64,000 bases of DNA from Myxococcota bacterium (GCA_965223415.1 OZ245002.1:2080001-2144000), one strand, 5' to 3'. Positions 21,284-61,090 are shown, counted from the first letter of the stretch. The notes: generated by a model not told the origin, from the letters alone. A program made the numbers and translations.

Positions 21284-21811
21284 TCAGAGCTGCTCGATCT
21301 CGAGGACCGTCCACTCGTCGCCGAAGCGCTTCCGCGTCCTCAGCCGCGCGTCGGCCTCGTCGTTCGCCTGCACGTAGAGCTTGCGGGTGCGGGGGCCGCC
21401 CTCGTGTCGCAGCCGCATCAGGAACGTGAACGCAGGTGCCTCGGCGGCGGCAGCCGCGGCGGTCCTGGGCGCCGCGCGCCGCGCCGACGAGGGGTCCATC
21501 ACGAGCCCGAAGTAGGAAGGCGGCGCGTTGCGGATCGCCAGGCCCATCCCCCCCTTCGCGAGGGTCCGGAGATGGGAGGCCACGGTCCGGCGCCACACCA
21601 CCTGGGCGTCGATCTCGATGGGTTGCGGGAGCTGAGCCGGGTTCAGGTGCACCCGCACGCTCTCGCCGGGCCGGCCCGGTGCGCCCGTCTGCACGAACAG
21701 GCCGCGCCGGGAGACGTTCAAGACCATGGCCGAGGTGGAGCTGCCTCCAACCGTGACCCGGCACGGGACCCGCTTCTTGAACCTCGGATCCCGCTGTGCC
21801 TCGACGCCCAT
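21284..21811 (-). CDS. PilZ domain protein
   Basis: RFKKR (RxxxR), NVSRRG (NxSxxG), AQVVW, GMGL. Confidence 0.75.
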   Translation of the reverse strand: MGVEAQRDPRFKKRVPCRVTVGGSSTSAMVLNVSRRGLFVQTGAPGRPGESVRVHLNPAQLPQPIEIDAQVVWRRTVASHLRTLAKGGMGLAIRNAPPSYFGLVMDPSSARRAAPRTAAAAAAEAPAFTFLMRLRHEGGPRTRKLYVQANDEADARLRTRKRFGDEWTVLEIEQL

Positions 21812-21905
21812 TCCGTCCTCCCCGCACCTCGACTTCGGAGACCTCGGCGTTTCCCTTGAGGCGGAGCTGGCCGGCCCGCGACCCGGGTGCCATGCTGGCC
21901 GGATC

Positions 21906-22433
21906 ATGGGTGTTCGTCGACTTGCCGCGTTCTGGGTCCTCCTCCTCGTGTTCGGCTGTGGCACTTTCGCATCATCTCCCGAACGGGTGACGGAGGGCTT
22001 CTGGGAGGCCGTCGCCCACGGCGACCTCGACGACGCGAAAGCCCACTCCACCGAGCTGGACCTGCGCCGCCTGACGAGGCTCGCCGAGCAGCACGCCATC
22101 GAGGGCGTCGAGATCGGCGAGGTCCTCACCCGCGGCGACGTCGCGGAGGTGGCGACCACCCTGCGGCGAGCGGAGGACGAGGCGATCACCTTCCACACCC
22201 AGCTCCGACGCTACGACGCAGGCTGGCGGGTCGACGCCCCGTCCAGCGCGACGGCCCTGCGCGAGGCGATCGCCGAGGAAGCGCTCTCGGACCTGCGCGA
22301 CGCCTTCAGCGAAGGCGCCGGTGCGATCGGCGAGGCGGTGGAGCAGGGCCTCGAAGAGGCGACCGACGCGATGCGCGAGGCCCTGGACGGGCTCGAGCGG
22401 GGCCGGCAGGAGCGTCGCTCGCCGGCGCCTTGA
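21906..22433 (+). CDS. hypothetical lipoprotein
   Basis: Lipobox VFGC; SPERVTEGFW...GWRV. Confidence 0.7.
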   Translation: MGVRRLAAFWVLLLVFGCGTFASSPERVTEGFWEAVAHGDLDDAKAHSTELDLRRLTRLAEQHAIEGVEIGEVLTRGDVAEVATTLRRAEDEAITFHTQLRRYDAGWRVDAPSSATALREAIAEEALSDLRDAFSEGAGAIGEAVEQGLEEATDAMREALDGLERGRQERRSPAP

Positions 22434-22439
22434 GTCTCG

Positions 22440-22985
22440 ATGCCGACCGCGTTCACCCACGCCTTGGTCGGTGGGCTCGTCGCTGGAGCCACCCGGGCCG
22501 AGCTTCCGCGCGGACGCCTCGTCCTCCTGCTCGCGACGCTGGCGGTGCTGCCGGACCTCGATGTCGTCGCCTTCTCCCTCGGCATCCCCTACGGCCACCC
22601 GCTCGGGCACCGCGGCCTCACCCACTCGCTGCCCTTCGCGCTCGCGCTGGCACCCGTCGCGACCGCACTGGTGTTCCCCCACCTCCCGCGTTTCGGGCCG
22701 ACCTGGTGGCGGGTGGTGGCGGGGGCCGCCCTGGCCTGCGCGTCCCACGGCGTTCTCGACGCCTTCACCGACGGCGGGCGCGGGGTCGGCTTCTTCGTTC
22801 CCTTCGACTCGCGGCGCTTCTTCTTCCCCTGGCGGCCGCTCATCGTGTCGCCGATCGGTGTCGGCTCCTTCCTGGGGCGGGCCACGCCGATCCTGTGGAA
22901 CGAGATCCTGTGGGTGTGGCTGCCGGCCCTGGTCCTGGCCGTCGCCTGGCGGCTCAGTCGTCGCCGGCCATCTCGGGGCGCATGA
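22440..22985 (+). CDS. inner-membrane metal-dependent hydrolase (YdjM/YbcI family)
   Basis: TH, PDLD, HRGLTHS, SHGVLD. Confidence 0.85.
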   Translation: MPTAFTHALVGGLVAGATRAELPRGRLVLLLATLAVLPDLDVVAFSLGIPYGHPLGHRGLTHSLPFALALAPVATALVFPHLPRFGPTWWRVVAGAALACASHGVLDAFTDGGRGVGFFVPFDSRRFFFPWRPLIVSPIGVGSFLGRATPILWNEILWVWLPALVLAVAWRLSRRRPSRGA

Positions 22986-23955
22986 CCGGGCCCGCGCGGT
23001 TGCGTCCGCCTTCCTTCGCCTCGTAGAGGGAGGCGTCCGCGGCTCGCAGCACCCCGGCCGGGTCTGCGCTGCCGGAGTTCGGCGCGACCACGGCGATGCC
23101 CAGGCTCACCGTCACGACGCCGTGGCGGGACGGCTCGTGGGGAATCTGCAGGGCTTCGACGGCGCCGCGGATCCGCTCGGCGGAGGCCACGGCGTCGTCC
23201 GCTTCGGTCTCTGGAAGGGCGACCACGAACTCCTCGCCGCCGAAGCGATAGAGCACGTCCGATCCGCGGATGGCCGAGTGGGCGGCGCCCACCAGATCGC
23301 CCAGCGCCGCGTCGGCCTCCGGGTGACCGTAGTGGTCGTTGAGCTTCTTGAACTCGTCGATGTCGAACATGATGAGTGCGAAGCCGCGACCGAAGCGCTC
23401 GGCCAGGGCCTGCTGCCGGTCGAGCTCCTTGTCGAGGGCGCGCCGGTTGCCCACGCCGAGCATGGGATCGACGAGGGCCATGTGCTCCAGCCGCTCGTTC
23501 AGCATCCGGAGCTGCTCGGTGCGCATGGCGACGTGCTCCTCGAGCTGGTCGCGCTCCCGCTCGAGGGCCAGGGCCTGGGCCTGGACCAGGTTGCTCTCGG
23601 TGATGAGACCGATCATCCCGCCGTCCCCGCCGACGATGATCACGCGTCGGATCTTGCGGCGGTCGAGCAGGCGAATTGCCGCCTCCACCGACGCCTCCTC
23701 GTGGAGGGTGATCGCCGGAGAGGTCATCAGCTCGCTGGCGATGCGGGGCAGGGGCTCTCCGTGCGCCTGGTCGGCCAGGGCCTCGACCACGTCCCGCTCG
23801 CTGATCACGCCCACCGGCAGCCAGTCCTCGATCACCGGAATGCAGGAGAGCCTCTGCTTTCGCATGCTCTCCAGCACGTCCACGAGCGGCGTGTTCCTCG
23901 TCGCCGTCTCGATGTGCCGGGTCATGACCTCGGCGAGCTTCACCGGCTCCATCAT
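22954..23955 (-). CDS. CBS-pair diguanylate cyclase
   Basis: Two CBS domains, coiled coil, DIDEFK.LND.YGH, RGSD I-site, GGEEF. Confidence 0.9.
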   Translation of the reverse strand: MMEPVKLAEVMTRHIETATRNTPLVDVLESMRKQRLSCIPVIEDWLPVGVISERDVVEALADQAHGEPLPRIASELMTSPAITLHEEASVEAAIRLLDRRKIRRVIIVGGDGGMIGLITESNLVQAQALALERERDQLEEHVAMRTEQLRMLNERLEHMALVDPMLGVGNRRALDKELDRQQALAERFGRGFALIMFDIDEFKKLNDHYGHPEADAALGDLVGAAHSAIRGSDVLYRFGGEEFVVALPETEADDAVASAERIRGAVEALQIPHEPSRHGVVTVSLGIAVVAPNSGSADPAGVLRAADASLYEAKEGGRNRAGPVMRPEMAGDD

Positions 23956-24596
23956 CGACCTCCTTCCGCGTTGCGGCGCTTCGCATCGCGATGGCGCCGG
24001 GCTTCCTCGCGGTAGATCCAACGGCGTAGCGCGGCCTGCTCTTCCAGGTCGGCGCCGACGAACTCGAAGCCCACGATCCGGCTGGCTCCCCGCGCATCGA
24101 CGCGCACCACCCGGGCCTGTAGCTCGAAGCTCCCCTCCCCCTGGAGATGGAAGCCACAGGTGACGATCTCTCCCGGCGCGAGCTCGGACCGCTCGCGTCC
24201 AGCGGCGCCTCCGGCGCTGACGTCGACCATCTGGAGCTTCTCGCGCTCGGGCGGCTGGTCCCGTCGGCCGTGGCGCTCCACCTCGAGCGCGACGTCGTAG
24301 GTGGTGAGCCGCACGTGGGAGCGGCGCTGGCTGCGCCGCCAGGAGCCCACTCGCCGCAGGACGAGGGTCTCCGGCGGGACGAGCTCGACCCGGGCGGGGG
24401 CGACGTACTGGGCGTCGCCGGGGACGACGTGCACCATCTTCACCATCTCGCCGGGCGCTCCCGGCTCCTCGATCCCGCTGATCCAGATCAAGCCGTCACT
24501 TACGCGCACGACGATGGCGGAGCGGAGCGGGTCGCCGGCTTCGCCGAGGAGCACCAGACGACTGCCGGTCGACAGCTTCGGCGACTCCGTGCCCAT
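23952..24596 (-). CDS. PilZ domain protein (YcgR-like flagellar brake candidate)
   Basis: QRRSHVR and DVSAGG c-di-GMP motifs; N-terminal beta-domain. Confidence 0.8.
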   Translation of the reverse strand: MGTESPKLSTGSRLVLLGEAGDPLRSAIVVRVSDGLIWISGIEEPGAPGEMVKMVHVVPGDAQYVAPARVELVPPETLVLRRVGSWRRSQRRSHVRLTTYDVALEVERHGRRDQPPEREKLQMVDVSAGGAAGRERSELAPGEIVTCGFHLQGEGSFELQARVVRVDARGASRIVGFEFVGADLEEQAALRRWIYREEARRHRDAKRRNAEGGR

Positions 24597-24778
24597 GGCC
24601 GTTGGTTCGGCGCCCGATGTGCAGAAGTTGATCGGGCCAACACCCGAGACGGCTGGGCGAATCACCGAGGGGGAGATCGCGGGGGAGGTTCCTTCCTGTC
24701 GTGGTGTTCGTTCTGCAACGTCTCGTCTTGCGTTCTGGGAGACGGGGAAGCTGGTCGGGCGCGACGACGGTCCCGGCC

Positions 24779-24794
24779 GGGCACCGATCTTGCG
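24779..24794 (+). promoter_or_regulatory. sigma54 -24/-12 promoter of the pseB operon
   Basis: GGGCAC-CGATC-TTGCG, GG-N10-GC. Confidence 0.7.
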
Positions 24795-24838: not shown

Positions 24839-25792
24839 GTGCTCCAGATCCTACTCACCGGTGGAACGGGCTCCTTCGGCCACGCCTTCGCTCGGCGGAT
24901 GCTCCGGGAGCGCGACGACTGCATGATCCGCATCTACAGTCGCGACGAGCTGAAGCAGGCCGAGATGCTCCGCCGCTTCGACGACGACGAGCGTCTGCGC
25001 TTCCTCATCGGCGACGTGCGGGATCGGGTGCGCCTGCGGCGGGCAATGAGCGACGTCGACGTTGTCGTGCACGCTGCCGCCATGAAGCAGGTGCCGATCT
25101 GCGAGTACAACCCGGCCGAGGCGGTGAAGACCAACGTCATGGGCGGCATGAACGTCCTCGAATGCTGCCTGGACGCCGGTGTGCCGAAGGCGATCGCCCT
25201 CTCGACCGACAAGGCGGTGAACCCGGTCAACATCTACGGCGCCACGAAGCTGTGCATGGAGAAGCTCTTCATCCATGGCAACGCCTACGCGGGCGGCAGC
25301 GATACCCGCTTCGCGGTGGTTCGCTACGGCAACGTGGTCGGGAGCCGGGGAAGCGTGATCCCGCTCTTCCTCCAGCAGGCGGCGGACGGCGTCATGACCG
25401 TGACGGACCGCCGCATGACCCGTTTCTGGATCTCCCTGGAGCAGGCGGTGGAGCTGGTGCTGCTGGCGATGGAGGACATGCAGGGCGAGGAGACCTTCGT
25501 GCCCAAGATCCCCAGCATGCGCATCGTCGATCTGGCCAAGGCAGTCCGTTCCGACGCGATGATCAAGGAGATCGGCATCCGGCCCGGCGAGAAGATGCAC
25601 GAGGTTCTGCTCACCGCCGACGAGGCACGGCACGCCCGGGATTTCGAGACCCACTTCGTGATCGGCGGCAATCCGAAGGGCGGCCGCTCGGTGCCGGAGG
25701 GCTTCGTCTACTCGAGCGACCAGAACTCGCTCTGGCTCACGGTCGAGAGGCTCTCGGAGCTGATCGAGAGCTGGAAGGTCGGGCGTGGGTGA
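24839..25792 (+). CDS. pseB: UDP-N-acetylglucosamine 4,6-dehydratase (inverting)
   Basis: TGGTGSFG, SRDELKQ, STDKAVNPVN.YGATK, RYGNVVGSRGSV. Confidence 0.93.
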   Translation: MLQILLTGGTGSFGHAFARRMLRERDDCMIRIYSRDELKQAEMLRRFDDDERLRFLIGDVRDRVRLRRAMSDVDVVVHAAAMKQVPICEYNPAEAVKTNVMGGMNVLECCLDAGVPKAIALSTDKAVNPVNIYGATKLCMEKLFIHGNAYAGGSDTRFAVVRYGNVVGSRGSVIPLFLQQAADGVMTVTDRRMTRFWISLEQAVELVLLAMEDMQGEETFVPKIPSMRIVDLAKAVRSDAMIKEIGIRPGEKMHEVLLTADEARHARDFETHFVIGGNPKGGRSVPEGFVYSSDQNSLWLTVERLSELIESWKVGRG

Positions 25793-26978
25793 GGTCGGCG
25801 ACCGTTCCCATCTTCCCTACACCCGGCACACGCTGGAGCCGGAGGATTCGCAGGCGCTGATCGATGCTCTCGAGAGCGGATGCATCACCCAGGGACCGAT
25901 CGTCCAGGACTTCGAGGCGCGGGTCGCCGCCATCGTGGGCGTGGGCCATGCAGTCGCCACGTCGAGCGGCACGACCGCCCTCGAGACCGCGCTGGCGGCC
26001 CTGGGCGTGGGGCCCGGCGCGGAGGTCGTCGTCCCCACGCTCACCTTCGTGGCGACGGCCAACGCGGTGCGCGCGCGAGGCGCCACGCCGGTCTTCGCCG
26101 ACGTGGATCCGCAGACCCTGAACCTCTCCGCGGAGACCCTCGCGCCTCACGTGAACGAGCGGACCGTGGGAGCGATCCCGGTGCACTTCGCCGGCCACCC
26201 CGCCGACGTCCCCGCGCTTCGGGAGGTGCTCGGGACCGAACGCTTCCTGCTCGAGGACGCCGCCCACGCCTTCGGGGCCGAGCTCGCCGATCGGCCGGCG
26301 GGATCACTCGGCGACGCGGCGTGCTTCTCCTTTCATCCGGCCAAGCTGGTCACGACGGCGGAAGGCGGGGCGGTCGCGACGAATTCGTCCTTCCTCGGCC
26401 GCCGCGCCCGGATGTTCCGCGAGCACGGGCTCGTCCGGGATCCGGCCCTCTTCGAGGGCCTCGACGTGCCGGAGGACCTGGCGGAGGACGGGCTCGGCCC
26501 CTGGGTCTACGAGCAGCAGAGCTGCGGCTCGAACCATCGCATGAACGAGCTCCAGGCGGCGCTCGGGCGCAGCCAGCTCACGAGGACCGGGCGCCTGCTC
26601 GAGCGGCGGCGCGCCCTGGCCGGCGCCTACGATGCGGCGCTCGCCGGCCTGGACGAGGTCGAGCCCCCCGCGGAGCGGGACGGCGCGCGTTCGGCCTGGC
26701 ACCTCTACGTGATCCGGCTGCGCCCCGGCTCGATCGGGCGAGGCGCCCTCTACCGGCGCATGCGCGAAGCGAAGATCGGCGTGCAGGTCCACTACGTGCC
26801 CGTCCATCTCCAGCCCTACCATCGCCACGAGCTGGGCACGGCCTGGGGCGACTACCCGGTGGCCGAGGACGCCTACCTGCGGATGCTCTCGCTCCCCCTG
26901 TTCCCCGGCATGGGAGAGGACGACACCTACCGGGTCGTGGACGCCCTGCGGCAAGCGCTGGCCGGGAGCCCCCGGTGA
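25785..26978 (+). CDS. pseC: UDP-4-amino-4,6-dideoxy-N-acetyl-L-altrosamine transaminase (DegT family)
   Basis: EDAAHA, FSFHPAK (PLP Lys), VQVHYVPVHLQPY; follows pseB. Confidence 0.85.
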   Translation: MGEVGDRSHLPYTRHTLEPEDSQALIDALESGCITQGPIVQDFEARVAAIVGVGHAVATSSGTTALETALAALGVGPGAEVVVPTLTFVATANAVRARGATPVFADVDPQTLNLSAETLAPHVNERTVGAIPVHFAGHPADVPALREVLGTERFLLEDAAHAFGAELADRPAGSLGDAACFSFHPAKLVTTAEGGAVATNSSFLGRRARMFREHGLVRDPALFEGLDVPEDLAEDGLGPWVYEQQSCGSNHRMNELQAALGRSQLTRTGRLLERRRALAGAYDAALAGLDEVEPPAERDGARSAWHLYVIRLRPGSIGRGALYRRMREAKIGVQVHYVPVHLQPYHRHELGTAWGDYPVAEDAYLRMLSLPLFPGMGEDDTYRVVDALRQALAGSPR

Positions 26979-28885
26979 GCGCGCTGGCTCCGGAAGTCCA
27001 CCGGCACGCGCTCCGGACGAACCTGGCCCGCCTGCAGGGCCGCCAGCCGGCCCTCGCCCAGGCGATCCTCGACGCCGATCCGGGCGGCGTGGAGGTGGTG
27101 GACGGAGCCAGGGGCATCCACACCGTGTCCGACCAGGGCACGCTGCTCGCCTCCGCCTACGACCCGGCGCGAGAGGGAGCGCGCCTGGCCGCGGACATGG
27201 CGGACGCTCCCACCGATCTGCTTGTCGCCGTGGGCTTCGGCCTCGGCCACCACCTCGAGGCCTTCCGCTCGCGCAATCCGTGTCCCGTCGTGGTCTACGA
27301 GCCGAAGCTCGCCCGGCTGCGGGCGGCGCTCTCGGCGCGGCCGGACCTCCGCCTGCTCGAAGAGGACGACGTCTACCTGACCGGCGATGCCGACGAGCTC
27401 CGCAACCTGATCGCCGCGCGCTACACGCCGGGGCTCCGGATCAAGGTCTTTCCCCATCCCGCACTGATGCGGCTCTCGCCGGATGCGGTGCACGAGGCGA
27501 TCGACCGGGTCTCCCGGGTCAAGGACTCGATCGATCTGGTCACGAACACGCGGATGACGATGATGGCCGATTGGGCACGGGGCACCATCGCCAACGCCCG
27601 CCACCTGACCCACCGGCCGAGCATCACGCGCCTCGCCGGCGCGTTCCGCGGCGTGCCGGCGGTGATCTGCGCTGCGGGCCCGTCGCTCGATCGGCAGCTC
27701 CCCAAGCTCGCCGCCGCCCGGGATCGGGTGCTCGTCGTCGCCATCGGTCAGACGCTGCGGGCACTCCGCCGGGCCGGGATCGAGCCCGACCTCGTGCACG
27801 TGGTGGAGAGCCAGGACGTGGCCCACCAGCTCACCGAGGCCGGCGACGTGAGCCGGCTCCACCTCGTGCTGCCGCCCCAGGCCCACCCTTCCCTCTTCAC
27901 GCTGCCCGTCCGCCAGCATTGGATCGCCTATCAATCGACGAACCCGTTCGGATGCTGGATCGGAGAGCAGCTCGGCGAGCGGGACTTCCTGCCCTCGGCA
28001 GGAACCGTGACCCAGTGCAGCCTGCACCTGGCCCGGGTGATGGGCTGCAACCCGGTCGCCGTGATCGGCCAGGATCTCGCCTTCACCGGGGGGCGCCTGT
28101 ACGCGAGCGGGTCCGCCTACCACGACGTCGGCTTCCGCACTCTCGCCGACGGGCGCTACGAGTACACGAACCTGCGCGGCAAGCTCGAGGCCCTGGGACG
28201 CGACGATCCCGGCCAGGCGATGGGCGGCGAGCTGATCTGGGTGGAGGGCTGGGACGGGAATGCCGTCCCGACGAACCAGGCCTACGCGTCCTTCCTCGAC
28301 CACTACCGGGACCTGAGTCCCTACTTCGCCCGCGAGGGCGTCAGCCTCGTGAACTGCACGGAAGGCGGCGCGCGGCTCCCGGGGCTGCTGCACCGGCCCT
28401 TCCAGGAGTTCCTGGACGAGCACGCGCGGACGCCCCACGGCGCGGGTGAGGTGCTCGCCCGGACGGCGGGCGCCTTCACGCCCGCTGCGCCGGGCCGCTT
28501 CGACCCCGGCTTCTCGAGGCTCCGGCGGGAGCTCCGCGAGCTCGGCCGCGAGTGCAGCCGCGGCCTCGAACGGGCGCGCAAGGCGCGCCGGGAGGTGGAG
28601 CGCGCCGCCGGAGAGGCCCGCCAGGTGGAGCTCCTACGGGGCGTCGCCCGGAGCCAGCGCAGGATCCATACCGTCGTTTCCCGCGTGACGCTCCTCGACG
28701 CCCTCGTCCAGCGCGAGCTCCAGGGCGTCCAGAGTGACGTCTCGCGGGCCTCCTCCGCCCATCCGACGCCGCTCCAGGTGGCGGGTGAGGCGGAACGCTT
28801 GATGGAGGCGGCCCAGCAGGCGGCCCGTCGCGGGGTCGAGCTCGTGGACACCCTCGAGCGGGAGATCGCGGACTCGCTGCCTTAG
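26975..28885 (+). CDS. maf: motility-associated factor (Maf) flagellin glycosyltransferase
   Basis: SAYDPAREG, GFGLGHH, AAGPSL, GQDLAF, NCTEGGA motifs. Confidence 0.85.
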   Translation: MSALAPEVHRHALRTNLARLQGRQPALAQAILDADPGGVEVVDGARGIHTVSDQGTLLASAYDPAREGARLAADMADAPTDLLVAVGFGLGHHLEAFRSRNPCPVVVYEPKLARLRAALSARPDLRLLEEDDVYLTGDADELRNLIAARYTPGLRIKVFPHPALMRLSPDAVHEAIDRVSRVKDSIDLVTNTRMTMMADWARGTIANARHLTHRPSITRLAGAFRGVPAVICAAGPSLDRQLPKLAAARDRVLVVAIGQTLRALRRAGIEPDLVHVVESQDVAHQLTEAGDVSRLHLVLPPQAHPSLFTLPVRQHWIAYQSTNPFGCWIGEQLGERDFLPSAGTVTQCSLHLARVMGCNPVAVIGQDLAFTGGRLYASGSAYHDVGFRTLADGRYEYTNLRGKLEALGRDDPGQAMGGELIWVEGWDGNAVPTNQAYASFLDHYRDLSPYFAREGVSLVNCTEGGARLPGLLHRPFQEFLDEHARTPHGAGEVLARTAGAFTPAAPGRFDPGFSRLRRELRELGRECSRGLERARKARREVERAAGEARQVELLRGVARSQRRIHTVVSRVTLLDALVQRELQGVQSDVSRASSAHPTPLQVAGEAERLMEAAQQAARRGVELVDTLEREIADSLP

Positions 28886-28897
28886 CCAGGTTCGAGG

Positions 28898-30376
28898 TCA
28901 GGCCCCGCCGTCACCCGGCGGAGGCTCGAAGACCTGTTGGGAGTAGCTGAAGCTGGTGTCGCCCTGATTGCGCTTCGGGGTGTGCTGCTTGTAGCCGCCG
29001 GTGCGAATCAGCTCGTCGTCGGCCAGACCGAGCTCGAGGCTCCGGTTCAGGCGCGAGCATTCCTCCTGGATCGCGTGCAGGATCGCCTCGTCCTCGAGCG
29101 CGGTCATGTTGAGGCAGATGTCCTGGCGCTCGGTAATCGAATCGAGGTAGGCGTCCTCGTCGGGGATGAACCCGTTCCGGCGGGCGTAGTCGTACATCTC
29201 GGTGTCGGGAAGCGGAAGGAGGAAGCCCACGCTCGGGTAGACGCCGTTGCGCTCGCAGAGGTCGAAGGTCTCGCGGATCGTGTCGCGAGTCTCGATCGGA
29301 TAGCCGAGCACGACGCTGGTGTTGGAGGTGATCCCGACCTCGCGCAGCAGGCGCACCTGCTCCTCGAAGTAGTCCACGCGAACCCGCTTGTTCATCATGG
29401 CGAGGATCTCGGCGTTGCCGGACTCGAGGGAGTAGCCGAGGGTGAGGCAGCCGGAATCGCGGAACTTCTGCGCGACTTCGAGGCGCCGCTCGTAGGGGAT
29501 CTGCCGGTTTCCGAACAGGTCGGTCCGCACGGCGGCGCTCCATGCGAAGCGCAGCCCGGAACCCAGGATCGCGTCCACCAGCTTCTCGGCTTGGGCGAGC
29601 TTGGTAAAGGTGAGGTCGTCCCAGAAGTTGATGTAGTTCGCGCCGTAGCCCTCGATGTTGCGGCGCACTTCCTGCAGCACGCCCTCGGCGCACCGGTGCC
29701 GATAGGGGTCGTGCTTGAAGACGATGTGGCAGAACGTGCACTTGTAGACGCAGCCGCGGGCGGTCGCGACGGGCATCGTGCGCCAGGTCGCATCGCCCTG
29801 GGTCGTGCCCCAGGCGGAGGGCGCGTCCGTCTCCGCGAAGTAGCGATCGACGTCGAAGAGGTCCCAATCGGGCATCGGCAGCTGGTCGATCGGGGCGGCC
29901 TTGCGGCGGGGCGTGTGGAGCGGCTCGCCCCGGGCGTCTCGAAGGACGATGCCCTCCACCTCGTGGAGGGCCGTGCCGCGCCGGAGTGCGTCGAGCACGG
30001 CCACGGTCGTGATCTCGCCCTCGCCGACCACCACCACATCGGCCTGCGACCGGGCCAGGAAGAGGTCCGGGACCGAGCCCGCCACCGAGTTCCCCACGAC
30101 GATCTTCGCTCCGGGAGCAGCGCGGCGCGCCATCTCCGTGAAGCCCTTCATCCACTTGTAGTGGGTGACGATCGATCCGGTGAGGATGACCTCCCAACGA
30201 TTCCGGCCCAGGAAGGCCTCGACGGCGTCGTCGTCCTGGTCGTGGACCCCGACGTCGAGAAGCTCGACCTCGTAGCCGGCTTCGCGCACCGCCGTCATCA
30301 CGTAGGCGAGACCGACCGGCAGGTAACGGGTCGCGTGGCCCGGACGCAGGTTGGGATTGACGAACAGCAGGCGCAT
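28898..30376 (-). CDS. cobalamin-dependent radical SAM enzyme (class B methyltransferase type)
   Basis: N-terminal B12-binding domain (PVGLAYV, VGEGE), RGCVYKCTFC, ESG. Confidence 0.88.
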   Translation of the reverse strand: MRLLFVNPNLRPGHATRYLPVGLAYVMTAVREAGYEVELLDVGVHDQDDDAVEAFLGRNRWEVILTGSIVTHYKWMKGFTEMARRAAPGAKIVVGNSVAGSVPDLFLARSQADVVVVGEGEITTVAVLDALRRGTALHEVEGIVLRDARGEPLHTPRRKAAPIDQLPMPDWDLFDVDRYFAETDAPSAWGTTQGDATWRTMPVATARGCVYKCTFCHIVFKHDPYRHRCAEGVLQEVRRNIEGYGANYINFWDDLTFTKLAQAEKLVDAILGSGLRFAWSAAVRTDLFGNRQIPYERRLEVAQKFRDSGCLTLGYSLESGNAEILAMMNKRVRVDYFEEQVRLLREVGITSNTSVVLGYPIETRDTIRETFDLCERNGVYPSVGFLLPLPDTEMYDYARRNGFIPDEDAYLDSITERQDICLNMTALEDEAILHAIQEECSRLNRSLELGLADDELIRTGGYKQHTPKRNQGDTSFSYSQQVFEPPPGDGGA

Positions 30377-30397
30377 GAAAGCTCCCTCGGCGGGCCG

Positions 30398-31135
30398 CTA
30401 CCAGCGGTAGGGCGTCTGGGGCACGTGCTCGTTCCAGACGAGCCAACCCGGGTGCTCGGTGAGCCAGCCCTCGACCCGGTCGAAGCCGAAGGCTTCCTCG
30501 CCCGGATGCAGGGCGTCGTAGAGGGCGGAGACCAGCCGGTAGTCGTCGGCGGTGTCCACGGCGAGCCGCCACGGGCGCCGATCCGGTGTGCGATCGAGAT
30601 ACGCGGCCGGGCCCGCCTGTCCCCGCCAGAGCCAGGGCGTCACGTGCTCGCGCTCGTAGGGGTCCCGCGCCTCGCGGTGCGCCCGGAGCAGCGCCGCCGC
30701 GGTGAAGGCCTCCGCGTCGAGACCGATCGGGTAGCCGCTCTCGAGGGCCGTCGACGCGAACGCCACGTCGAGGCCCTGGCGCAGGGCGAGCACCGACGCA
30801 CCGACCGCCGGGTCGTAGAGCGGGCAGTCCGACGTGACGCGAAGCACGACGGAGGCGCCGGTCGCATCCACCGCCAGGGCCGTTCGCGCGAGCACGTCCT
30901 CCTCCGGTCCGCGCACGACGTGCACGCCCCTGTGCAGAGAAGCGACGTCGACCACCGGCTGCTGAGCCGCGCCCTCGGGAAGGGCGACGCAGATTTCGTC
31001 GACGCCCGGCGTCCGCCCGACCCGCTCGATCACCCGCGAGAGGAGCGGGGCTCCGGCGAGGGGCAGGCACACCTTGCCCGGCAGCCGTGTCGAGGTGCCC
31101 CGCGCCTGGATCACCGCCACGACGGGCCCGCTCAC
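30398..31135 (-). CDS. acylneuraminate cytidylyltransferase (SpsF/PseF-like)
   Basis: IQARGTSTRLPGKV, RVTSDCP, REHVT, LAVDTADD. Confidence 0.85.
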   Translation of the reverse strand: MSGPVVAVIQARGTSTRLPGKVCLPLAGAPLLSRVIERVGRTPGVDEICVALPEGAAQQPVVDVASLHRGVHVVRGPEEDVLARTALAVDATGASVVLRVTSDCPLYDPAVGASVLALRQGLDVAFASTALESGYPIGLDAEAFTAAALLRAHREARDPYEREHVTPWLWRGQAGPAAYLDRTPDRRPWRLAVDTADDYRLVSALYDALHPGEEAFGFDRVEGWLTEHPGWLVWNEHVPQTPYRW

Positions 31136-32187
31136 GACGCCTCTCCCAGCTGTTCCCACTGGAGGGGCTCGCCCCGCTTCAGATCGCGGAGCGCCGGGCG
31201 ACCGAGCACCGCGCCCAGGTGACGCGGCTCGAGGCCGAGGGCGGGACGGATCGAGCGCACCGCGTCACGGGTGAGCCGCTCTCCGGCTGCCACGTCCCGC
31301 ACGACGTAGAGCGAGCGCCGACACCGGCGGCTGCTCGCCTCGCAGGCAGCCGGTGCCGAACGTCCGTCGCCCAGGCCTTCCCAGGCGGCCCGCACGTCGC
31401 GCACCATCGCCGCGAACTCGTCGGGCTCCAGGCTGAAGCCCGCGTCGGGGCCGCCGTCGGCTCGCGCCAGGGTGAGGTGCTTCTCGATCAGGCTCGCGCC
31501 GAGGGCGACCGCGGCGATCGGAGCGGCGGGCCCGAGGCTGTGGTCCGACAGCCCGGTGACGACGCCGAACTCCGCCGCGAGGGTCGCCATGCGGCGCAGG
31601 TTCATCTCGCCGGGCGGGGTCGGGTAGCCGCTCACGCAGTGCAGCAGCGCCAGGTCGGTGCCGCCGGCGGCCCGGGCCGCGGCGAGGGCGCGTCGGATCT
31701 CGTCGGGCGTGGCCATGCCCGTGGAGAGGACGACCGGGCGTCCGGTCGCCGCGGCCCGCGCGATCAGCTCGAGATCGCCCAGCTCGAAGGACGCGATCTT
31801 GTAGGCTGGTGCGTCCAGCCGCTCGAGGAAGTCGACGGTCGCCGGGTCGAAGGGGGAGCTGAAGACAGCCATTCCCAGCTCGCGGCCGCGGGCGAAGAGC
31901 GCCGGGTGCCACGCGGCGGGCGTCTGGGCCTCGGCGTAGAGCTCGAACAGGTTGCGACCGCGCCAGGGGCCGTCCTCGATGTGGAACCCCGGCCCGCTCT
32001 CGTCGAGGGTCATGCTCTCGGGCGTGTAGGTCTGGAGCTTCACGGCGTCGGCGCCGGCCCGGTGGGCGGCTTCGACGATGGCGAGGGCGCGGTCCCGATC
32101 GCCCAGGTGGTTCGCCGAGAGCTCCGCCACCACGTAGGGCGGCGCGCCGTCCCCAATCCAGCGTCTGTCCAGGGCGAATCCGCTCAC
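31132..32187 (-). CDS. pseI: pseudaminic acid synthase
   Basis: AELSANH, KLQTY, KIASFE, GLSDH, IEKH, C-terminal SAF domain. Confidence 0.9.
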   Translation of the reverse strand: MSGFALDRRWIGDGAPPYVVAELSANHLGDRDRALAIVEAAHRAGADAVKLQTYTPESMTLDESGPGFHIEDGPWRGRNLFELYAEAQTPAAWHPALFARGRELGMAVFSSPFDPATVDFLERLDAPAYKIASFELGDLELIARAAATGRPVVLSTGMATPDEIRRALAAARAAGGTDLALLHCVSGYPTPPGEMNLRRMATLAAEFGVVTGLSDHSLGPAAPIAAVALGASLIEKHLTLARADGGPDAGFSLEPDEFAAMVRDVRAAWEGLGDGRSAPAACEASSRRCRRSLYVVRDVAAGERLTRDAVRSIRPALGLEPRHLGAVLGRPALRDLKRGEPLQWEQLGEAS

Positions 32188-32921
32188 GGGCTCACTCCCA
32201 GGGTGCGCGGCTCGCGCCGGCCCCGTCGCAGGATCTCCCGGGCCTCGCGGCCGGTATTGAGGAGCAGGTCGACGGCGCTCGCCTGGGAGACGAAGCCGGC
32301 GCTGCACCGGGCACTGCACTGGGGATAGGGCGGTGGCTCGAAGTGCTGGATCGAGACGCGGATGCCGCGGCTGCGGAACGGCTCCTGGTCCTCGAGCAGG
32401 TAGGGCTCGGCTCCGGGGGCGGAGAGGTAGTGGGTGGCGCCCAGCTCCTCGCACAGGCCGGCCAGTCGCTCGCCCCGCCGCCCGCCGGCCTCGAGCCGCG
32501 AAGAGCGGTGGATCGGCACGTCGATGCCGAGCTCGTGGAACAGCCAGCCGATCAGCGCCAGGTTCAGCTCCGCGAGCCCCGTCCACGGCGCGCCGGAGGC
32601 GTAGGTGGCCTCGAGCCGCGACGCGAAAGGCTCGAGGGCGGGGGCGCGGGCGTAGGCGTGGCGGAGGGTGCGCAGGTGTTTGCGCCAGAAGTCCGCGTGG
32701 TCGATCGCGACGTCGCGGATGGTCTGTCCGCGCAGCCCCTTTACCCGCACCGGAACCGTCAGCCAATGCAGCGCGCCGCCGACGACGATGCGATTGCGCT
32801 GCTGCCAGCTGCGGTGGGCGAAGCTGGCATCGTCGAGGAAGACGAAGCGATCGACCTGGTCCGCCAGGTCGAGGTAGCCGGGCCACGGCAGGTAGGTGGG
32901 CTGCATGATCGCGACCCGCAT
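32184..32921 (-). CDS. WbqC family protein
   Basis: IMQPTYLPWPGY...QQRNRI...WLTVPV...YLSAPGA. Confidence 0.88.
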   Translation of the reverse strand: MRVAIMQPTYLPWPGYLDLADQVDRFVFLDDASFAHRSWQQRNRIVVGGALHWLTVPVRVKGLRGQTIRDVAIDHADFWRKHLRTLRHAYARAPALEPFASRLEATYASGAPWTGLAELNLALIGWLFHELGIDVPIHRSSRLEAGGRRGERLAGLCEELGATHYLSAPGAEPYLLEDQEPFRSRGIRVSIQHFEPPPYPQCSARCSAGFVSQASAVDLLLNTGREAREILRRGRREPRTLGVSP

Positions 32922-33871
32922 CAGGTCGCCGCTCCCGCGAGCCGCTCCCACACCGCGCCCGCGACCCGGAAGCAGCCGCGGCCGTCGAAGGGGCGTGCGG
33001 CGGGCGGCCCCTGGGCGAGGGCCTCCTCCACCCGTGCCCAGGCCGCTTCCGGCTCCGCCTTCGGCTCCAGCCCGAGCAGTGCGCCCTCGCTCTCGAGCCA
33101 GGCGATCTCCTCCACCAGATCGGGCTCGTTGGGGAAGGCGACGCAGGGAACGCCGACGGTGAGCGCCTCCGGGACGATCATGCCTCCGGTGACCAGCGCG
33201 ACCGAAGCCCGGCACAGGCGGCGGGCGAGCTCTTCCGCTTCCAGATCGACCCGCAGCTCGTGGCCGCCCGCTTCGCAGGTGCTGCGGAGCCGTTCCGGCT
33301 CCGCGAAGGACCCGCCGACGACCACGCATAGGTGCAGCGTCCCGGATGGCTCGGCGAGGAGCCCGAGCAGCCAGCGGGCCGCGTTCGCCCCGGAGCCCGC
33401 GACGACGATGACCTCGGGCACCTCGGCCGGCTCGCGGAGGCCCCGGGCCTCGGCGAAGGCCGGACGCAGGAGCGCGTAGCGCGGGCCGCACAGGCGGAGC
33501 GCCTCCTCCGGCAGCTTCGGGTAGGCATGGCGCGTCCCGGGACCGCTTCCGTTCACCACGACGTCGGCGCAGGCGGCGTCGCCGCCGTCGTCGACGACGA
33601 CCCGGAGCCCGGAGGTCGCCACCCGGGCCTCGCGCGGATCCGGGTGGTCCACGACGAGCAGGTCGGCCCTCGCTGCCAGCGCCTCGTAGCGCGCGGGCGG
33701 CTCGATGCGGGCCCCGGGAAACAGCGCGGCGAGGTCGTCCGCACCCCGGCCCACGACGATCGGGGGCGCCGTCCCGGGCAGGGCGTCCAGCAGCGCCGCC
33801 GTGCGCACCGCGTGGCCGCGGCCCACCGAGGCGTCGGCATCGAGGCGTGCAACCGCGCAGGGACCGCTCAC
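32921..33871 (-). CDS. pseG: PseG/SpsG-like UDP-sugar hydrolase
   Basis: DADASVGRGHAVR, VVDHP, GPRYALLRPAF, DGRG. Confidence 0.75.
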   Translation of the reverse strand: MSGPCAVARLDADASVGRGHAVRTAALLDALPGTAPPIVVGRGADDLAALFPGARIEPPARYEALAARADLLVVDHPDPREARVATSGLRVVVDDGGDAACADVVVNGSGPGTRHAYPKLPEEALRLCGPRYALLRPAFAEARGLREPAEVPEVIVVAGSGANAARWLLGLLAEPSGTLHLCVVVGGSFAEPERLRSTCEAGGHELRVDLEAEELARRLCRASVALVTGGMIVPEALTVGVPCVAFPNEPDLVEEIAWLESEGALLGLEPKAEPEAAWARVEEALAQGPPAARPFDGRGCFRVAGAVWERLAGAAT

Positions 33872-33872
33872 G

Positions 33873-34574
33873 TCAGCGAACCGCCGAGACCAGCCAGTCG
33901 TCGTCCAGGAAGCGGCCGCCCTCACGGGTGACGCTTCGGCGATCCACCTGGACGTGGGTGAAGGGTCGGAACAGCTCGCGCAGGCTCGCCTCGTCGAGGA
34001 AGGTCATCTCCAGGCCCTCCTCGGCGGCCGCCGGCGTCCCGGCCAGTCCCTCGAGGCGGACGCGGTGATCGCCGATCGCCGTGCCGAAGACGAGGCGGGA
34101 ATCCGCGTCGCTTCGCGTGCCGCACAGGAAGCGGCCGCCCGGCGCCAGCGCGCCGGCGACGCGCGAGATGGACGCGGCGATGCGCTCGAGGGGCGCGTAG
34201 CAATAGACCGACGCACACAGCACGGCGTCGAAGAAGCCTTCCGGGAACTCGAACGCGTCGATCGCGGCCTGCTGCGTGCCCAGCTCGAGGCCCTCTCCCG
34301 CGGCGCGGCGCAGGGCCTCGTCCAGACCCGCTCGCGACAGGTCGACGGCGAAGGTCTCGAAGCCCTCGCGGGCGAGGAACACCGCGTGGCGGCCCGCCCC
34401 GCAGCCGAGGTCGAGGGCGCGCGTGCTCCCGCGGCGCAGGCCGGGGAAGCTCGTGAGGGCCCAACGCACCACGGCCTCGTCCGGGTAGCGCGGGCAGTAG
34501 CGCGCTTCGCCGTGCAGCGCGTCCCAGCGCTCCCGCAAGCCCGCCTGCCCGACGTCGTCCAGCGCGGTCAGCAC
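33873..34574 (-). CDS. class I SAM-dependent methyltransferase
   Basis: RYPDEAVVRW, ALDLGCGAGRH, LAPGGRF. Confidence 0.85.
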   Translation of the reverse strand: MLTALDDVGQAGLRERWDALHGEARYCPRYPDEAVVRWALTSFPGLRRGSTRALDLGCGAGRHAVFLAREGFETFAVDLSRAGLDEALRRAAGEGLELGTQQAAIDAFEFPEGFFDAVLCASVYCYAPLERIAASISRVAGALAPGGRFLCGTRSDADSRLVFGTAIGDHRVRLEGLAGTPAAAEEGLEMTFLDEASLRELFRPFTHVQVDRRSVTREGGRFLDDDWLVSAVR

Positions 34575-34584: not shown

Positions 34585-34615
34585 CGTTTCAGATCGAAAC
34601 GCGGCGGTTTCGATC
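34585..34615. promoter_or_regulatory. overlapping palindromes, candidate enhancer (activator-binding site)
   Basis: CGTTTC-N5-GAAACG at 34585-34601 and GATCGAAAC-N6-GTTTCGATC at 34592-34615. Confidence 0.55.
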
Positions 34616-34677
34616 GGGAACCCGAGCCCCCCTCTCGCCCGCGCAGAAACGAGCGGAAGGCAGCGTCGACACGAGAG

Positions 34678-34693
34678 AGCAAGACCCGTGCCC
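34678..34693 (-). promoter_or_regulatory. sigma54 promoter of the methyltransferase-pseG-wbqC-pseI-pseF-rSAM operon
   Basis: Minus strand GGGCAC-GGGTC-TTGCT. Confidence 0.7.
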
Positions 34694-34709
34694 TGGCGCG
34701 GCGATTGCA
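34694..34709 (+). promoter_or_regulatory. sigma54 promoter of the 34746 gene (and possibly the stator genes)
   Basis: TGGCGC-GGCGA-TTGCA. Confidence 0.7.
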
Positions 34710-34745
34710 TCGACCCGTAGGCGCGCGGGTGAAGAGGAGGAGACC

Positions 34746-35339
34746 ATGCGCCTGATCCAGGATGGACGGGAGTCCCAGGTCGAAGACGGTGCGGAGAACG
34801 CGGAGGCCTTGCTCCTTCCGCGCCTCGCGCCCACCGGCGAGGATCCGCGGGTGGTCGTGCGCATGTGGCTCGACGGAAGCGACGTGCCCTCGAGCGAGCT
34901 CGGCGATCTCTCCGCGATCGCCGTGCAGGGCTGCGAGCTCCTGGAGGTAGAGACCGCGCCGGTGCGCGACGTCGCCCGGCAGAGCCTGGCGAGCGCGGGG
35001 GAGTACGCGGAGAAGGTGAAGGACGCTCTGCGGCATACCGCCGAGCTGATGCGCTCGGACCGTCCGGAGGTGGCCAACGAGCACTTCGCCGAGGCGATCG
35101 ATGGGATGTCCGTGCTCTTCTTCACCCTCCAGGCCGCCGCTCAGCACCTCGGGCCGGAAGCTCGTCCGGTGGAGGAGATCGGCGCGCGCGTGCAGCCCTG
35201 GCTCGACGCCCTGACCGAGGCCCAGATCGCCCAGGACTGGATCCGCGTCGCGGACTACCTGGAGTACGAGATCGCTCCGGTGCTCGGAGAGGCGCGGGGC
35301 GCGATCGCCGCCGTGTGCGAGGGCGGCAGCCCGGGGTAG
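34746..35339 (+). CDS. hypothetical flagellar-locus protein
   Basis: GAGGAGG SD; acidic helical protein ending QDWIRVADYLEYEIAP. Confidence 0.8.
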   Translation: MRLIQDGRESQVEDGAENAEALLLPRLAPTGEDPRVVVRMWLDGSDVPSSELGDLSAIAVQGCELLEVETAPVRDVARQSLASAGEYAEKVKDALRHTAELMRSDRPEVANEHFAEAIDGMSVLFFTLQAAAQHLGPEARPVEEIGARVQPWLDALTEAQIAQDWIRVADYLEYEIAPVLGEARGAIAAVCEGGSPG

Positions 35340-36235: not shown

Positions 36236-36978
36236 GCGACGAAGACGAGGCCTTCGAGGAGCCGACGGCCCCAGCTTGGATGGCGACCTTCGGGGACCTG
36301 ATGAGTCTCCTGCTGTGCTTCTTCGTCCTCCTCCTCTCCTTCGCCAGCATGGACGCGAAGCGCTTCGCCGAGGTGAACGGCTCGATGCGCGACGCCTTCG
36401 GCGTCCAGCAGATCGAGCCCGGCGAGTTCGAGGCGCTGTCGGACGATCTCATCAGCCTGAACGACCGGTCGACCTCCTCCCACGTCAGCGTCATCGACGT
36501 GCCCACCCGCGCGAAGACCGACGCCAAGAGGCTGGTGCAGCGCATCAAGGCGAGCATCGCCGCCCAGCGCATGGATCGGCTGATCGAGGTGGAGGAGACG
36601 CCCCGCGGCGTCATGATCCGGGTGCCGGGCCAGCTGATGTTCTCCTCGGGCTCGACGGAGCTGAGGCCGGAATCGCTGGTCTTCCTGCGGGAGATCGCCG
36701 GCCTGATCAACGGGACGCCGGACACGGTGGCGATCGAGGGTCACACCGATGCGTCTCCCTCCTCCGCCACCACGACCAACTGGACGATCTCCACGGCCCG
36801 GGCGGTGGCCACCCTCGAGTTCCTCGTCGACGTCGGCCACGTCGACCCCTCGCGCCTGCAGGCCACCGGCTTCGCGGACACGAAGCCCATCGCTTCGAAC
36901 GAAGAGCCCGCCGGCCGTGCGAAGAACCGCCGCGTCGAGTTCACCTTCCTCCGCACGTCGGCCGAGGTGGAAGGGTAG
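36232..36978 (+). CDS. motB: flagellar stator B subunit (PomB/MotS type)
   Basis: WMATFGDLMSLLLCFFVLL; OmpA-like EGHTD...NRRVEF. Confidence 0.92.
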   Translation: MSDEDEAFEEPTAPAWMATFGDLMSLLLCFFVLLLSFASMDAKRFAEVNGSMRDAFGVQQIEPGEFEALSDDLISLNDRSTSSHVSVIDVPTRAKTDAKRLVQRIKASIAAQRMDRLIEVEETPRGVMIRVPGQLMFSSGSTELRPESLVFLREIAGLINGTPDTVAIEGHTDASPSSATTTNWTISTARAVATLEFLVDVGHVDPSRLQATGFADTKPIASNEEPAGRAKNRRVEFTFLRTSAEVEG

Positions 36979-37157
36979 GCGGAAGGATCTTCCGCCCGAC
37001 CTTTCTCCCTGAAACACCCGAAGCGTTCCGACTGAAACGGGGGTCGGAGCCCTCGAATCATGCGGCGCCCGCTCCCATCGCAGCGGAAAAGTCCAAAAAG
37101 AACGCAAGGTGTCCGCGTCTTCCGCCGATCGATGAGCCCATGACCGAGGGCTCCAAA

Positions 37158-38588
<1,431 letters not shown>

Positions 38589-48913: not shown

Positions 48914-48929
48914 TGGCACGCGTCTTGCT
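48914..48929 (+). promoter_or_regulatory. sigma54 promoter of the flgF operon
   Basis: TGGCACG-CGTC-TTGCT, consensus match. Confidence 0.85.
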
Positions 48930-60108: not shown

Positions 60109-60124
60109 TGGCACCCGCCTTGCA
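60109..60124 (+). promoter_or_regulatory. sigma54 promoter of flagellin
   Basis: TGGCACC-CGCC-TTGCA. Confidence 0.85.
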
Positions 60125-60265: not shown

Positions 60266-61090
60266 ATGGGTCTTCGAGTCAACAACAACATCGCTTCGCT
60301 CAACGCGCAGCGAAACCTCGCCACCACCACGAACAACCTGCAGCGTTCGCTGGAGCGGCTGTCCTCGGGTCTGCGGATCACTCGCGCGTCCGACGATGCG
60401 GCCGGTCTGGCGATCTCCGAGCGGTTCCGCGCCGAGGTGCGGAGTCTCCAGCAGGCGCAGCGGAACGCCAACGACGGCATTTCGCTGCTGCAGATCGCGG
60501 AAGGCGCCCTCAACGAGACGAGCGGCATCCTCACGCGTCTGCGCGAGCTCGCCATCCAGTCGGCGAACGGCACCCTCGGGACCGCCGAGCGCACCACACT
60601 GGACAACGAGTTCAACGACTTGGTGACGGAGATCGGGCGGATCGCCCAGGTGACGGAGTTCAACGGCACCAAGCTGTTGGACGGCACGGCGCCGAGCGTC
60701 ACCTTCCAGGTGGGATCGAACAACACGGCCAACGACCAGATCACGGTCACTGGCGTGGATGCCACTGCCACCGGAATCGGCATCAGCGCGGCCGGTATCG
60801 ATACGGTTGCCAACGCCCAGGCGGCGCTGTCGCTGATCGACTCGGCCATCGGAACCGTCGCGTCCCTGCGCGCCGGCTTCGGTACCGCCCAGAACCGCCT
60901 CGAGTCCACGATCCGATCGATCGCGGTCTCCGTGGAGAACACCACGGCGGCCGAGTCCCGGATCCGCGACGTCGATGTGGCCTCCGAGACCGCCATCCTG
61001 ACGCGGAACCAGGTTCTGCAGCAGGCCGGCATCTCGGTGCTCGCCCAGGCGAACGTGTCGACGCAGAACGCGTTGGCCCTGCTCCAGTAG
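60266..61090 (+). CDS. fliC: flagellin (274 aa)
   Basis: RVNNN, LSSGLRI..ASDDAAG, QNRLE, SRIRDVD, LAQAN. Confidence 0.97.
   Translation: MGLRVNNNIASLNAQRNLATTTNNLQRSLERLSSGLRITRASDDAAGLAISERFRAEVRSLQQAQRNANDGISLLQIAEGALNETSGILTRLRELAIQSANGTLGTAERTTLDNEFNDLVTEIGRIAQVTEFNGTKLLDGTAPSVTFQVGSNNTANDQITVTGVDATATGIGISAAGIDTVANAQAALSLIDSAIGTVASLRAGFGTAQNRLESTIRSIAVSVENTTAAESRIRDVDVASETAILTRNQVLQQAGISVLAQANVSTQNALALLQ

Follow-up and report, generated by a model that had tools for sequence, protein, structure and literature searches.

Pseudaminic acids (Pse) decorate flagella and surface polysaccharides and affect motility as well as phage and immune recognition, and the six-enzyme pathway that makes them is treated as settled. 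In its canonical form in Campylobacter jejuni and Helicobacter pylori, as laid out in the available sections of PMC7591256 and bioRxiv 10.64898/2026.04.20.719630, the pathway comprises PseB, PseC, PseH, PseG, PseI and PseF, with transfer of the sugar to flagellin by Maf/PseE. The same sections of PMC7591256 describe a variant in Caulobacter, where a cytidylyltransferase unrelated to PseF (FlmC) serves Pse and the PseH step is unlinked and redundant. The locus described here occupies positions 24839-34574 of a 64-kb stretch (64,000 nucleotides, hereafter the window) from the 5.83-Mb genome of a Myxococcota bacterium (GCA_965223415.1, OZ245002.1:2080001-2144000), and combines pse genes and maf with wbqC and with genes for a class I S-adenosylmethionine (SAM)-dependent methyltransferase (MT) and a B12-binding radical SAM enzyme. 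We consider it fairly likely that this is a flagellar glycosylation island, probably controlled by sigma-54 and built on a WbqC-type cassette that lacks a GNAT acetyltransferase and carries the MT, the Pse-type sugar of which would be transferred to flagellin by Maf and in which WbqC would not replace PseH.

Because the G+C content of the window is about 70%, genes were chosen by third-position G+C together with family matches. The locus consists of nine near-gapless genes in two converging operons that are separated by 12 nucleotides (nt), with pseB, pseC and maf on the plus strand and the genes for the MT, PseG, WbqC, PseI, a cytidylyltransferase (CT) and the B12 radical SAM enzyme on the minus strand. 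At pseC/maf, pseG/wbqC and wbqC/pseI the start codon overlaps the preceding stop codon, and as the genes adjoin or overlap, the locus has no space for a hidden gene. The product of pseB (24839..25792, +), the inverting uridine diphosphate N-acetylglucosamine (UDP-GlcNAc) 4,6-dehydratase, scores above the equivalog cutoff (TIGR03589, 445.7 bits against 407.75; PF02719, 326 bits), and so does that of pseI (31132..32187, −), the pseudaminic acid synthase (TIGR03586, 447.2 bits against 340.25); the latter reaches 273.6 bits with the NeuB model, under NeuB's own cutoff, and its gene starts in a GTGA overlap with the wbqC stop codon. For the pseC-like DegT-family aminotransferase (25785..26978, +; 4-amino sugar; PF01041, 367 bits), TIGR03588 is by far the top match with 371.7 bits, below the cutoff of 423.5, and the runner-up is the ArnB model with 253.7 bits. 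The 245-residue product of wbqC (32184..32921, −) matches PF08889 with 205.8 bits, the gathering score being 21.3, and covers model positions 1-217 of 218, a full-length family match. The minus-strand operon opens with the MT gene (33873..34574, −; 233 residues; Methyltransf_25/11; PF13649, 64 bits, and PF08241, 58 bits), which has its GTG start at 34574 behind a GAGGAGG ribosome-binding site, and closes with the gene for the 492-residue radical SAM enzyme (28898..30376, −; PF02310, 64 bits, and PF04055, 63.5 bits).

The pseG-like product (32921..33871, −) is divergent, scoring 64.7 bits with TIGR03590, below the cutoff of 153.55. For its AlphaFold2 (AF2) model, which was computed from an alignment that included 15 homologues (predicted local distance difference test score (pLDDT) 89.7), the top Foldseek matches in the PDB are C. 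jejuni PseG (3HBN/3HBM), with E 4.7e-12 and template modelling (TM) scores of 0.70 (query-normalised) and 0.77-0.78 (target-normalised). The protein has invariant residues in common with 15 PseG homologues, G17, G19, H20 and R23 among them, and the GxGH motif is kept. On this modelled fold the protein is assigned as PseG, a predicted UDP-sugar hydrolase of the GT-B fold, despite its low hidden Markov model score. The 636-residue product of maf (26975..28885, +; start in a GTGA overlap with the pseC stop codon) has an MptE-like domain at residues 205-372 (PF01973, 109 bits) and, being in the Maf size range of about 600-700 residues and having flagellar and nonulosonic acid genes around it, is assigned as a motility accessory factor and putative flagellin nonulosonic acid transferase. 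It matches chain A of 5MU5, which we take to be a Maf structure, weakly (E 3e-4), and scores 51 bits with the PseD model, far under the cutoff of 670. The CT (30398..31159, −; exact start uncertain) is a CTP_transf_3/KdsB-like protein (PF02348, 75.6 bits) that matches the PDB entry 6OEW, a 'cytidylyltransferase', with E 2.8e-22; with 20.3 bits for the PseF model TIGR03584 against a cutoff of 205.7 it is no PseF equivalog. Judging by position, it is the putative functional analogue of PseF, like FlmC of Caulobacter.

The locus is embedded in flagellar genes, its neighbours being motA/motB, an NtrC-type sigma-54 activator (open reading frame (ORF) 36276-38588, +), fliL, fliM, fliOP, fliQ, fliR, flhB, flhA and flhF, with flgF to flgL, csrA, fliW, fliD, fliS and fliT as further flagellar genes flanking it. 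The presumed glycan acceptor is a flagellin of 274 residues encoded about 25 kb downstream (60266..61090, +; PF00669, 144 bits, and PF00700, 79 bits); its gene starts with the ATG at 60266 behind GGAGGAAAC, and 52 of the 274 residues past the start Met are Ser or Thr. The sigma-54-type −24/−12 pattern GGCAC-N5-TTGC is matched exactly at four places in the window, where 0.38 are expected, and 0 of 100 shuffles yield four; all four are intergenic, correctly oriented and upstream of pse or flagellar genes. These putative promoter motifs lie 46 nt upstream of pseB (24780..24793, +), 105 nt upstream of the MT gene (34679..34692, −), about 50 nt ahead of the likely flgF start (48915-48928, +) and 143 nt upstream of the flagellin gene (60110..60123, +), and the 14-mer near the MT gene recurs identically upstream of the MT gene in two loci from other genomes, L001 and L002. 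The motifs support, without proving, a co-regulation of both pse operons with the flagellar genes through sigma-54.

The search for PseH, the GNAT that N-acetylates the 4-amine, covered the window. No ORF of the 64 kb reaches the PseH model TIGR03585, the best score being 12.9 bits (E 0.086) for a generic, not PseH-like GNAT of 173 residues (14798-15319), and when three PseH-type domains served as tblastn queries for the whole window, no match was better than E 0.26. A second GNAT, an Eis-like protein of 417 residues (58761-60014; Acetyltransf_9), is not PseH-like either. A first-pass annotation of the window, made from the sequence alone, had delimited the same nine genes, read them as a locus for flagellin glycosylation and remarked that no PseH-type GNAT lies among them. 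Family matches and ORF calls bear out the coordinates and the order in every particular, the model scan and tblastn agree on the lack of a PseH-type GNAT, and the role in flagellin glycosylation is upheld by the flagellar cluster, the Maf gene, the flagellin gene at 60266-61090 and the sigma-54-type motifs that the locus has in common with flgF and flagellin.

In the protein collection, WbqC relatives number more than 1,200. Scanning one genome per species yielded 526 stretches with WbqC relatives, the best match being 73% identical, and the best 80 were fetched with their flanks (L001-L080; mostly metagenome-assembled genomes (MAGs) of Acidobacteriota, with some Proteobacteria, Myxococcota and others; ORF calls in these loci are heuristic). 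Tblastn with the window proteins found pseI adjoining wbqC in 74 of the 80 loci, pseC in 62, pseB and the CT in 59 each, the MT in 20, maf in 3 and the B12 radical SAM enzyme in 2, several of the misses being due to contig ends that cut the loci. By ORF clustering, MT homologues (family 7) occur in 40/80 loci; an equivalog-level PseG family is present in 72/80 and a true PseF in only 11/80. Clustering and family scans together give PseB-PseC-(MT)-CT-PseG-(GNAT)-WbqC-PseI as the typical gene order, and in Acidobacteriota the cassettes usually lie within exopolysaccharide loci with Wzc, flippase and GT4 genes. WbqC is a regular partner of pseudaminic acid synthase in many bacteria. The full operon from the MT gene through pseG, wbqC, pseI and the CT gene to the radical SAM gene, with a convergent maf, is found only in L001 and L002 among the 80, at 46-77% protein identity; in both, motA/motB lie beside the operon, and L002 is placed in Myxococcota. 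A Maf relative is also present in L006 (Kofleriaceae), and a flagellin gene lies near the cassette of L034 (Limnohabitans). The neighbourhood of wbqC, pseI and the B12 radical SAM gene, which the first-pass annotation had put forward for checking, recurs widely in its first two members and rarely, in 2 of the 80 loci, in its third.

A cassette was counted as complete when it held pseB, pseC, pseG, wbqC and pseI, which applied to 51 of the 80; the remaining 29 loci, many of them cut by contig ends, were left out as incomplete. GNATs were scored between pseB and pseI, one GNAT family alone giving 23/51 and PseH-type probes taken from fusion proteins adding 7. A GNAT is present in 30 of the complete cassettes (11 with an MT and 19 without) and absent from 21, 20 of which carry an MT, as the window locus does, and one of which has neither (Fisher p 2e-5 for the 51 cassettes, uncorrected for kinship). 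Directly beside wbqC, an MT is encoded in 13/21 GNAT-less cassettes and in 0/30 cassettes with a GNAT. The cassette GNATs are either RimI-like, which is the commonest type and often fused to the C-terminus of PseG, or PseH-type Acetyltransf_3 proteins. The GNAT adjoining WbqC in L030 is at the PseH equivalog level (147.2 bits against a cutoff of 93.1), and eight further GNAT segments have PseH as their top match yet stay under the cutoff.

Four fusions were found among longer proteins, joining WbqC to an equivalog-level PseH (P0121, 167 bits against the same cutoff of 93.1), PseG, GNAT and WbqC in this order (P0122), WbqC, PseG and GNAT (P0123), and an N-terminal part of unknown nature to WbqC (P0124). 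In three of the 80 loci, PseG-family ORFs of 778-836 residues take in the WbqC region. On the WbqC tree the GNAT label switches at least 8 times, with 4 switches forced by well-supported branches; the sister WbqCs of L021 and L036, and of L022 and L057, differ in GNAT, and near-identical WbqC proteins occur in cassettes with and without one. The window groups with L001 and L002 in a clade of strong support (100/99) that is GNAT-less and MT-bearing. Since WbqC occurs with a GNAT in 30 of the 51 cassettes and is fused to PseH and PseG, it would work together with PseG and PseH. WbqC is no general substitute for PseH, remaining constant while the GNAT comes and goes, and the simplest reading, as far as gene content indicates, is that the MT, not WbqC, would take the place of the acetyltransferase. 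The part of the first-pass interpretation in which WbqC replaces PseH and installs a glycyl group is not supported and, as a general rule, is contradicted by the GNATs of the 30 cassettes, by the PseH-level GNAT adjoining WbqC in L030 or fused to it in P0121, by the P0122 and P0123 fusions and by the near-identical WbqCs with and without GNAT. What stands of it, besides the assignment to flagellin glycosylation, is that, given the extra enzymes encoded in the operon (the MT, WbqC and the B12 radical SAM enzyme), the product likely differs from plain Pse5Ac7Ac.

These loci vary in other respects as well. The KdsB-like CT forms fusions, in 10 loci with a class III (GSA-aminomutase-like) aminotransferase and in 8 with an aldo/keto reductase; examples of CT fusions among L003-L080 are those of L007 (6032-8188) and L019 (5544-7226). 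In about 25 of the 80 loci (e.g. L008, L026, L043 and L053) a polysaccharide deacetylase and a 526-residue protein with a FemAB-like Acetyltransf_6 domain are encoded downstream of pseI and could act as a deacetylate-then-reacylate pair, with either the polymer or the sugar as substrate. In the proteobacterial loci L034, L048, L052 and L080, a second DegT-family aminotransferase gene (PseC') stands just upstream of wbqC, in the order PseG-PseC'-MT-WbqC-PseI in L034, L048 and L080 and PseG-PseC'-WbqC in L052, whose contig stops short of any pseI. The arrangement hints at an extra amination step in that branch.

The fold of WbqC gives no clue to its chemistry. With the AF2 model (pLDDT 93.7), a Foldseek search of the PDB returned nothing at E ≤ 0.001, the best TM score being 0.31 (ThiF); a profile search of PDB sequences gave nothing below E 0.45, and the ESM Atlas contained no usable match once PF08889 was left out and no structure entry for this protein. 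Literature on the name WbqC, in the sections that were available, contained no functional study; no paper was found that links WbqC or PF08889 to nonulosonic acids or that deals with pseudaminic acid in Acidobacteria exopolysaccharide, and none found describes a WbqC-type Pse cassette. Distant wbqC genes on plasmids of cultured bacteria have DegT-type sugar aminotransferase genes alongside in all five annotated contexts. On the plasmids of Bacillus mycoides and Mycobacterium branderi a PIG-L deacetylase gene directly follows wbqC, the Solidesulfovibrio plasmid has a radical SAM gene and methyltransferase genes as neighbours, and that of Streptomyces vietnamensis has radical SAM/SPASM genes and a MurG-like gene. 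The wbqC gene of E. coli O121, presumably the serogroup in which wbqC was named, was sought by a DNA search with a distant, low-GC Bacillus gene, which gave no match.

In the radical SAM enzyme, a B12-binding domain is combined with a radical SAM core whose CxxxCxxC motif (CVYKCTFC) stands at residue 209 and is kept in 119/119 homologues; this is the domain composition of class B. It reaches no NCBIfam equivalog, the best score being 110 bits for HpnJ against a cutoff of 577.6; its family comprises at least 120 clusters at 52% identity or more, every one generically named, and its sole plasmid relative is 26% identical. Methylation by this enzyme is an assumption, since its nearest solved chains are distant (9CCB with E 3.7e-8, then AprD4 and OxsB) and some B12 radical SAM enzymes are not methylases. 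The available parts of the literature yielded no link between a B12 radical SAM enzyme and flagellin glycosylation. For the MT, the nearest named families are a mix of N-, O- and other methyltransferases.

Taking together the observed gene identities, synteny, co-occurrence, fusions and promoter motifs, we infer the following substrates, order of steps and final sugar structure. The island would make a cytidine monophosphate (CMP)-activated sugar of the pseudaminic acid type, which Maf would transfer to the flagellin encoded 25 kb downstream. In the WbqC-type cassette, PseB and PseC would be followed by either a GNAT or a class I MT and then by PseG, WbqC, PseI and the KdsB-like CT, with WbqC adding one constant step that is linked to PseG and PseI. 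The window locus would belong to the GNAT-less, MT-bearing subclass and would have acquired the B12 radical SAM enzyme in addition. The PseC amine (the future N7), or a group placed on it, may be methylated instead of simply acetylated, and the radical SAM enzyme may add a further (C-)methyl group or a similar change, so that the flagellin would carry a methylated, non-standard Pse derivative, which is what this island variant probably makes.

Several points weigh against this interpretation. The scores of PseC and PseG are under the equivalog cutoffs, the promoter motifs are pattern matches only, and the chemistry of WbqC, MT and the radical SAM enzyme is deduced from the genes alone. The MT of the window sits upstream of pseG and does not adjoin wbqC; 11 cassettes hold both a GNAT and an MT, and the MT could methylate oxygen and have nothing to do with the slot of the GNAT. 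The cassette counts come from related genomes, mostly Acidobacteriota MAGs, and from the best 80 of 526 loci, 29 of which were set aside. A PseH-type acetyltransferase may also be encoded elsewhere in the genome. If it were an ordinary one, the core sugar would be Pse5Ac7Ac, and WbqC, the MT and the radical SAM enzyme would add late O- or C-methyl decorations or act on another glycan. We regard this as improbable. It would agree with the coexistence of WbqC and PseH-type GNATs in many cassettes, with a PseH search that covered 64 kb of 5.83 Mb, and with Caulobacter, where, going by the accessible text of PMC7591256, the Pse genes are scattered, flmH and two paralogues can be lost without reproducing the phenotype of other flm mutants, and six enzymes, WbqC not among them, suffice for Pse production in E. 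coli. The MT, in contrast, is present in 20 of the 21 GNAT-less cassettes and stands beside wbqC only in such cassettes, which argues for a swap and not for a random loss of linkage. The PseG of the window is, moreover, unusually divergent, with its 64.7 bits against about 180-223 bits in six PseGs from GNAT-bearing cassettes or fusions, and both GNATs of the window are unlike PseH.

Alternatively, WbqC could be an N-acyl or aminoacyl transferase, possibly one using aminoacyl-tRNA, that takes over from PseH at the amine made by PseC. The MT would then N-methylate the amino acid and the B12 radical SAM enzyme would C-methylate it, which would give an N7-(methylated aminoacyl) Pse, and the GNAT of the sister cassettes would cap the alpha-amine with acetyl. 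The alternation of GNAT and MT would agree with a single alpha-amine that is capped by either acetyl or methyl, the type most often found among the cassette GNATs is RimI-like and not PseH-like, and 21 of the 51 complete cassettes have no GNAT within the 20 kb examined. The aminotransferase genes beside wbqC in the five annotated plasmid contexts and the PIG-L/LmbE deacetylase genes directly after it in two of them also point in this direction, as do Streptomyces operons that combine WbqC with a dedicated ProRS paralogue, an unusual tRNA-Pro, LmbE and MurG (PMC10404621, as stated in its Figure 2 legend) and the amide-linked N-acetylglycine of the E. coli O121 O antigen (PMC7685785, in the part available). 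Nevertheless we find this explanation doubtful, because the equivalog-level PseH that is fused to WbqC in P0121 and adjoins it in L030 would, as a true PseH, use up the same amine. The locus contains no aminoacyl-tRNA synthetase, tRNA or ATP-grasp gene, the Foldseek, PDB profile and ESM Atlas searches gave no tie in fold or sequence to known acyl- or aminoacyl-transferases, and a published proposal of WbqC as a 'glycyl transferase' was not found in the literature searched. The reading we prefer remains that of a flagellar island with a GNAT-less, MT-bearing WbqC-type cassette in which WbqC would be an additional step.

A seventh protein family with no solved structural relative is a regular neighbour of Pse synthase, and at times a fusion partner of PseG or PseH, in many environmental bacteria, and beside it acetyltransferase and methyltransferase swap repeatedly. 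Both the WbqC-type Pse cassette and the alternation of GNAT and MT appear undescribed, and they predict that the flagellin of this lineage and soil Acidobacteriota exopolysaccharides bear sugars not yet described; for the window locus itself the gain is smaller, one more variant of a flagellin glycosylation island. A bolder view, which we hold only tentatively and would not bet on, is that WbqC is a new nonulosonic acid enzyme, its fold having no counterpart among solved structures, in a widespread alternative Pse pathway (526 species-level genomes; pseI as neighbour in 74/80) leading to a new Pse derivative, and in the boldest form an aminoacyl-tRNA-dependent transferase acting on a nucleotide-sugar amine, with capping by GNAT or MT. 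If this form were true, the flagellin glycan here and the exopolysaccharides of many soil Acidobacteriota would carry N-aminoacyl pseudaminic acids.

Other genes of the window were also recorded. Between the MT promoter motif and motA lies a plus-strand gene of 197 residues and no known family (34746-35339), which has a GAGGAGGAG ribosome-binding site and is kept in L001 and L002, where the substitutions follow a codon-like pattern; an ORF on the opposite strand (34589-35125, −) was rejected, its apparent conservation being the antisense shadow of this gene. Directly upstream of pseB is a cyclic di-GMP (c-di-GMP) module in which two genes for PilZ proteins (21284-22198, −, and 23952-24665, −) accompany one for a CBS-GGDEF diguanylate cyclase (22954-24021, −). 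Between fliW and the flagellin gene stand an IS630-family transposase gene (57625-58764, +) and, on the minus strand, the Eis-like GNAT gene; this GNAT gene is divergent to the flagellin gene and may modify flagellin or have come with the insertion element. Within the flagellar cluster, a 347-residue ORF (40384-41427, +) contains FliO at residues 8-76 and FliP at 151-344, an apparent FliO-FliP fusion or a fliP start called too early, and a FlgJ homologue of just 94 residues (53022-53306, +) has the rod-binding part without the peptidoglycan hydrolase domain. Farther away, at 2643-8021, are small genes of a detoxification type, with an APH(6)-like kinase (3756-4757, −), several glyoxalase/Fos-like proteins and MAPEG and GFA-domain proteins, all scoring far under the cutoffs of resistance-gene models.

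Compared with the canonical Pse pathway, the locus has PseB and PseI at the equivalog level, PseC as best match, PseG by its predicted fold, a Maf-type MptE-like protein and flagellar surroundings. It differs in having no PseH and a CT that is not PseF, and in its additional WbqC, class I MT and B12 radical SAM enzyme. The last of these resembles the class B (cobalamin-dependent) radical SAM methylases, enzymes that methylate unactivated carbon or phosphorus atoms, in its N-terminal B12-binding domain and CxxxCxxC radical SAM core, but stays under every characterised equivalog cutoff and has only distant solved relatives. The O-antigen wbqC of E. coli O121/Shigella dysenteriae 7, the namesake of PF08889, belongs to the same Pfam family and stands in an amino-sugar cluster, in which we know of no nonulosonic acid synthase. 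With Caulobacter the locus shares a Pse pathway for a short flagellin and a non-PseF cytidylyltransferase, the Caulobacter acetyltransferase step being unlinked or redundant; the Caulobacter transferase is FlmG, whereas Maf is found here, and the set of genes sufficient for Pse in Caulobacter includes no WbqC, MT or radical SAM enzyme, as far as the available sections of PMC7591256 go. Beyond L001 and L002, the locus resembles the WbqC-type cassettes of L003-L080 (Acidobacteriota and some Proteobacteria), which have the same PseB-PseC-(MT)-CT-PseG-WbqC-PseI core, the same KdsB-like cytidylyltransferase family and WbqC proteins 43-54% identical to that of the window. Unlike the window locus, these cassettes mostly lie beside Wzc, flippase and GT4 genes, and most of them would therefore serve polysaccharide and not flagellin; the B12 radical SAM enzyme is present in none of the 78, and a Maf relative only in L006.

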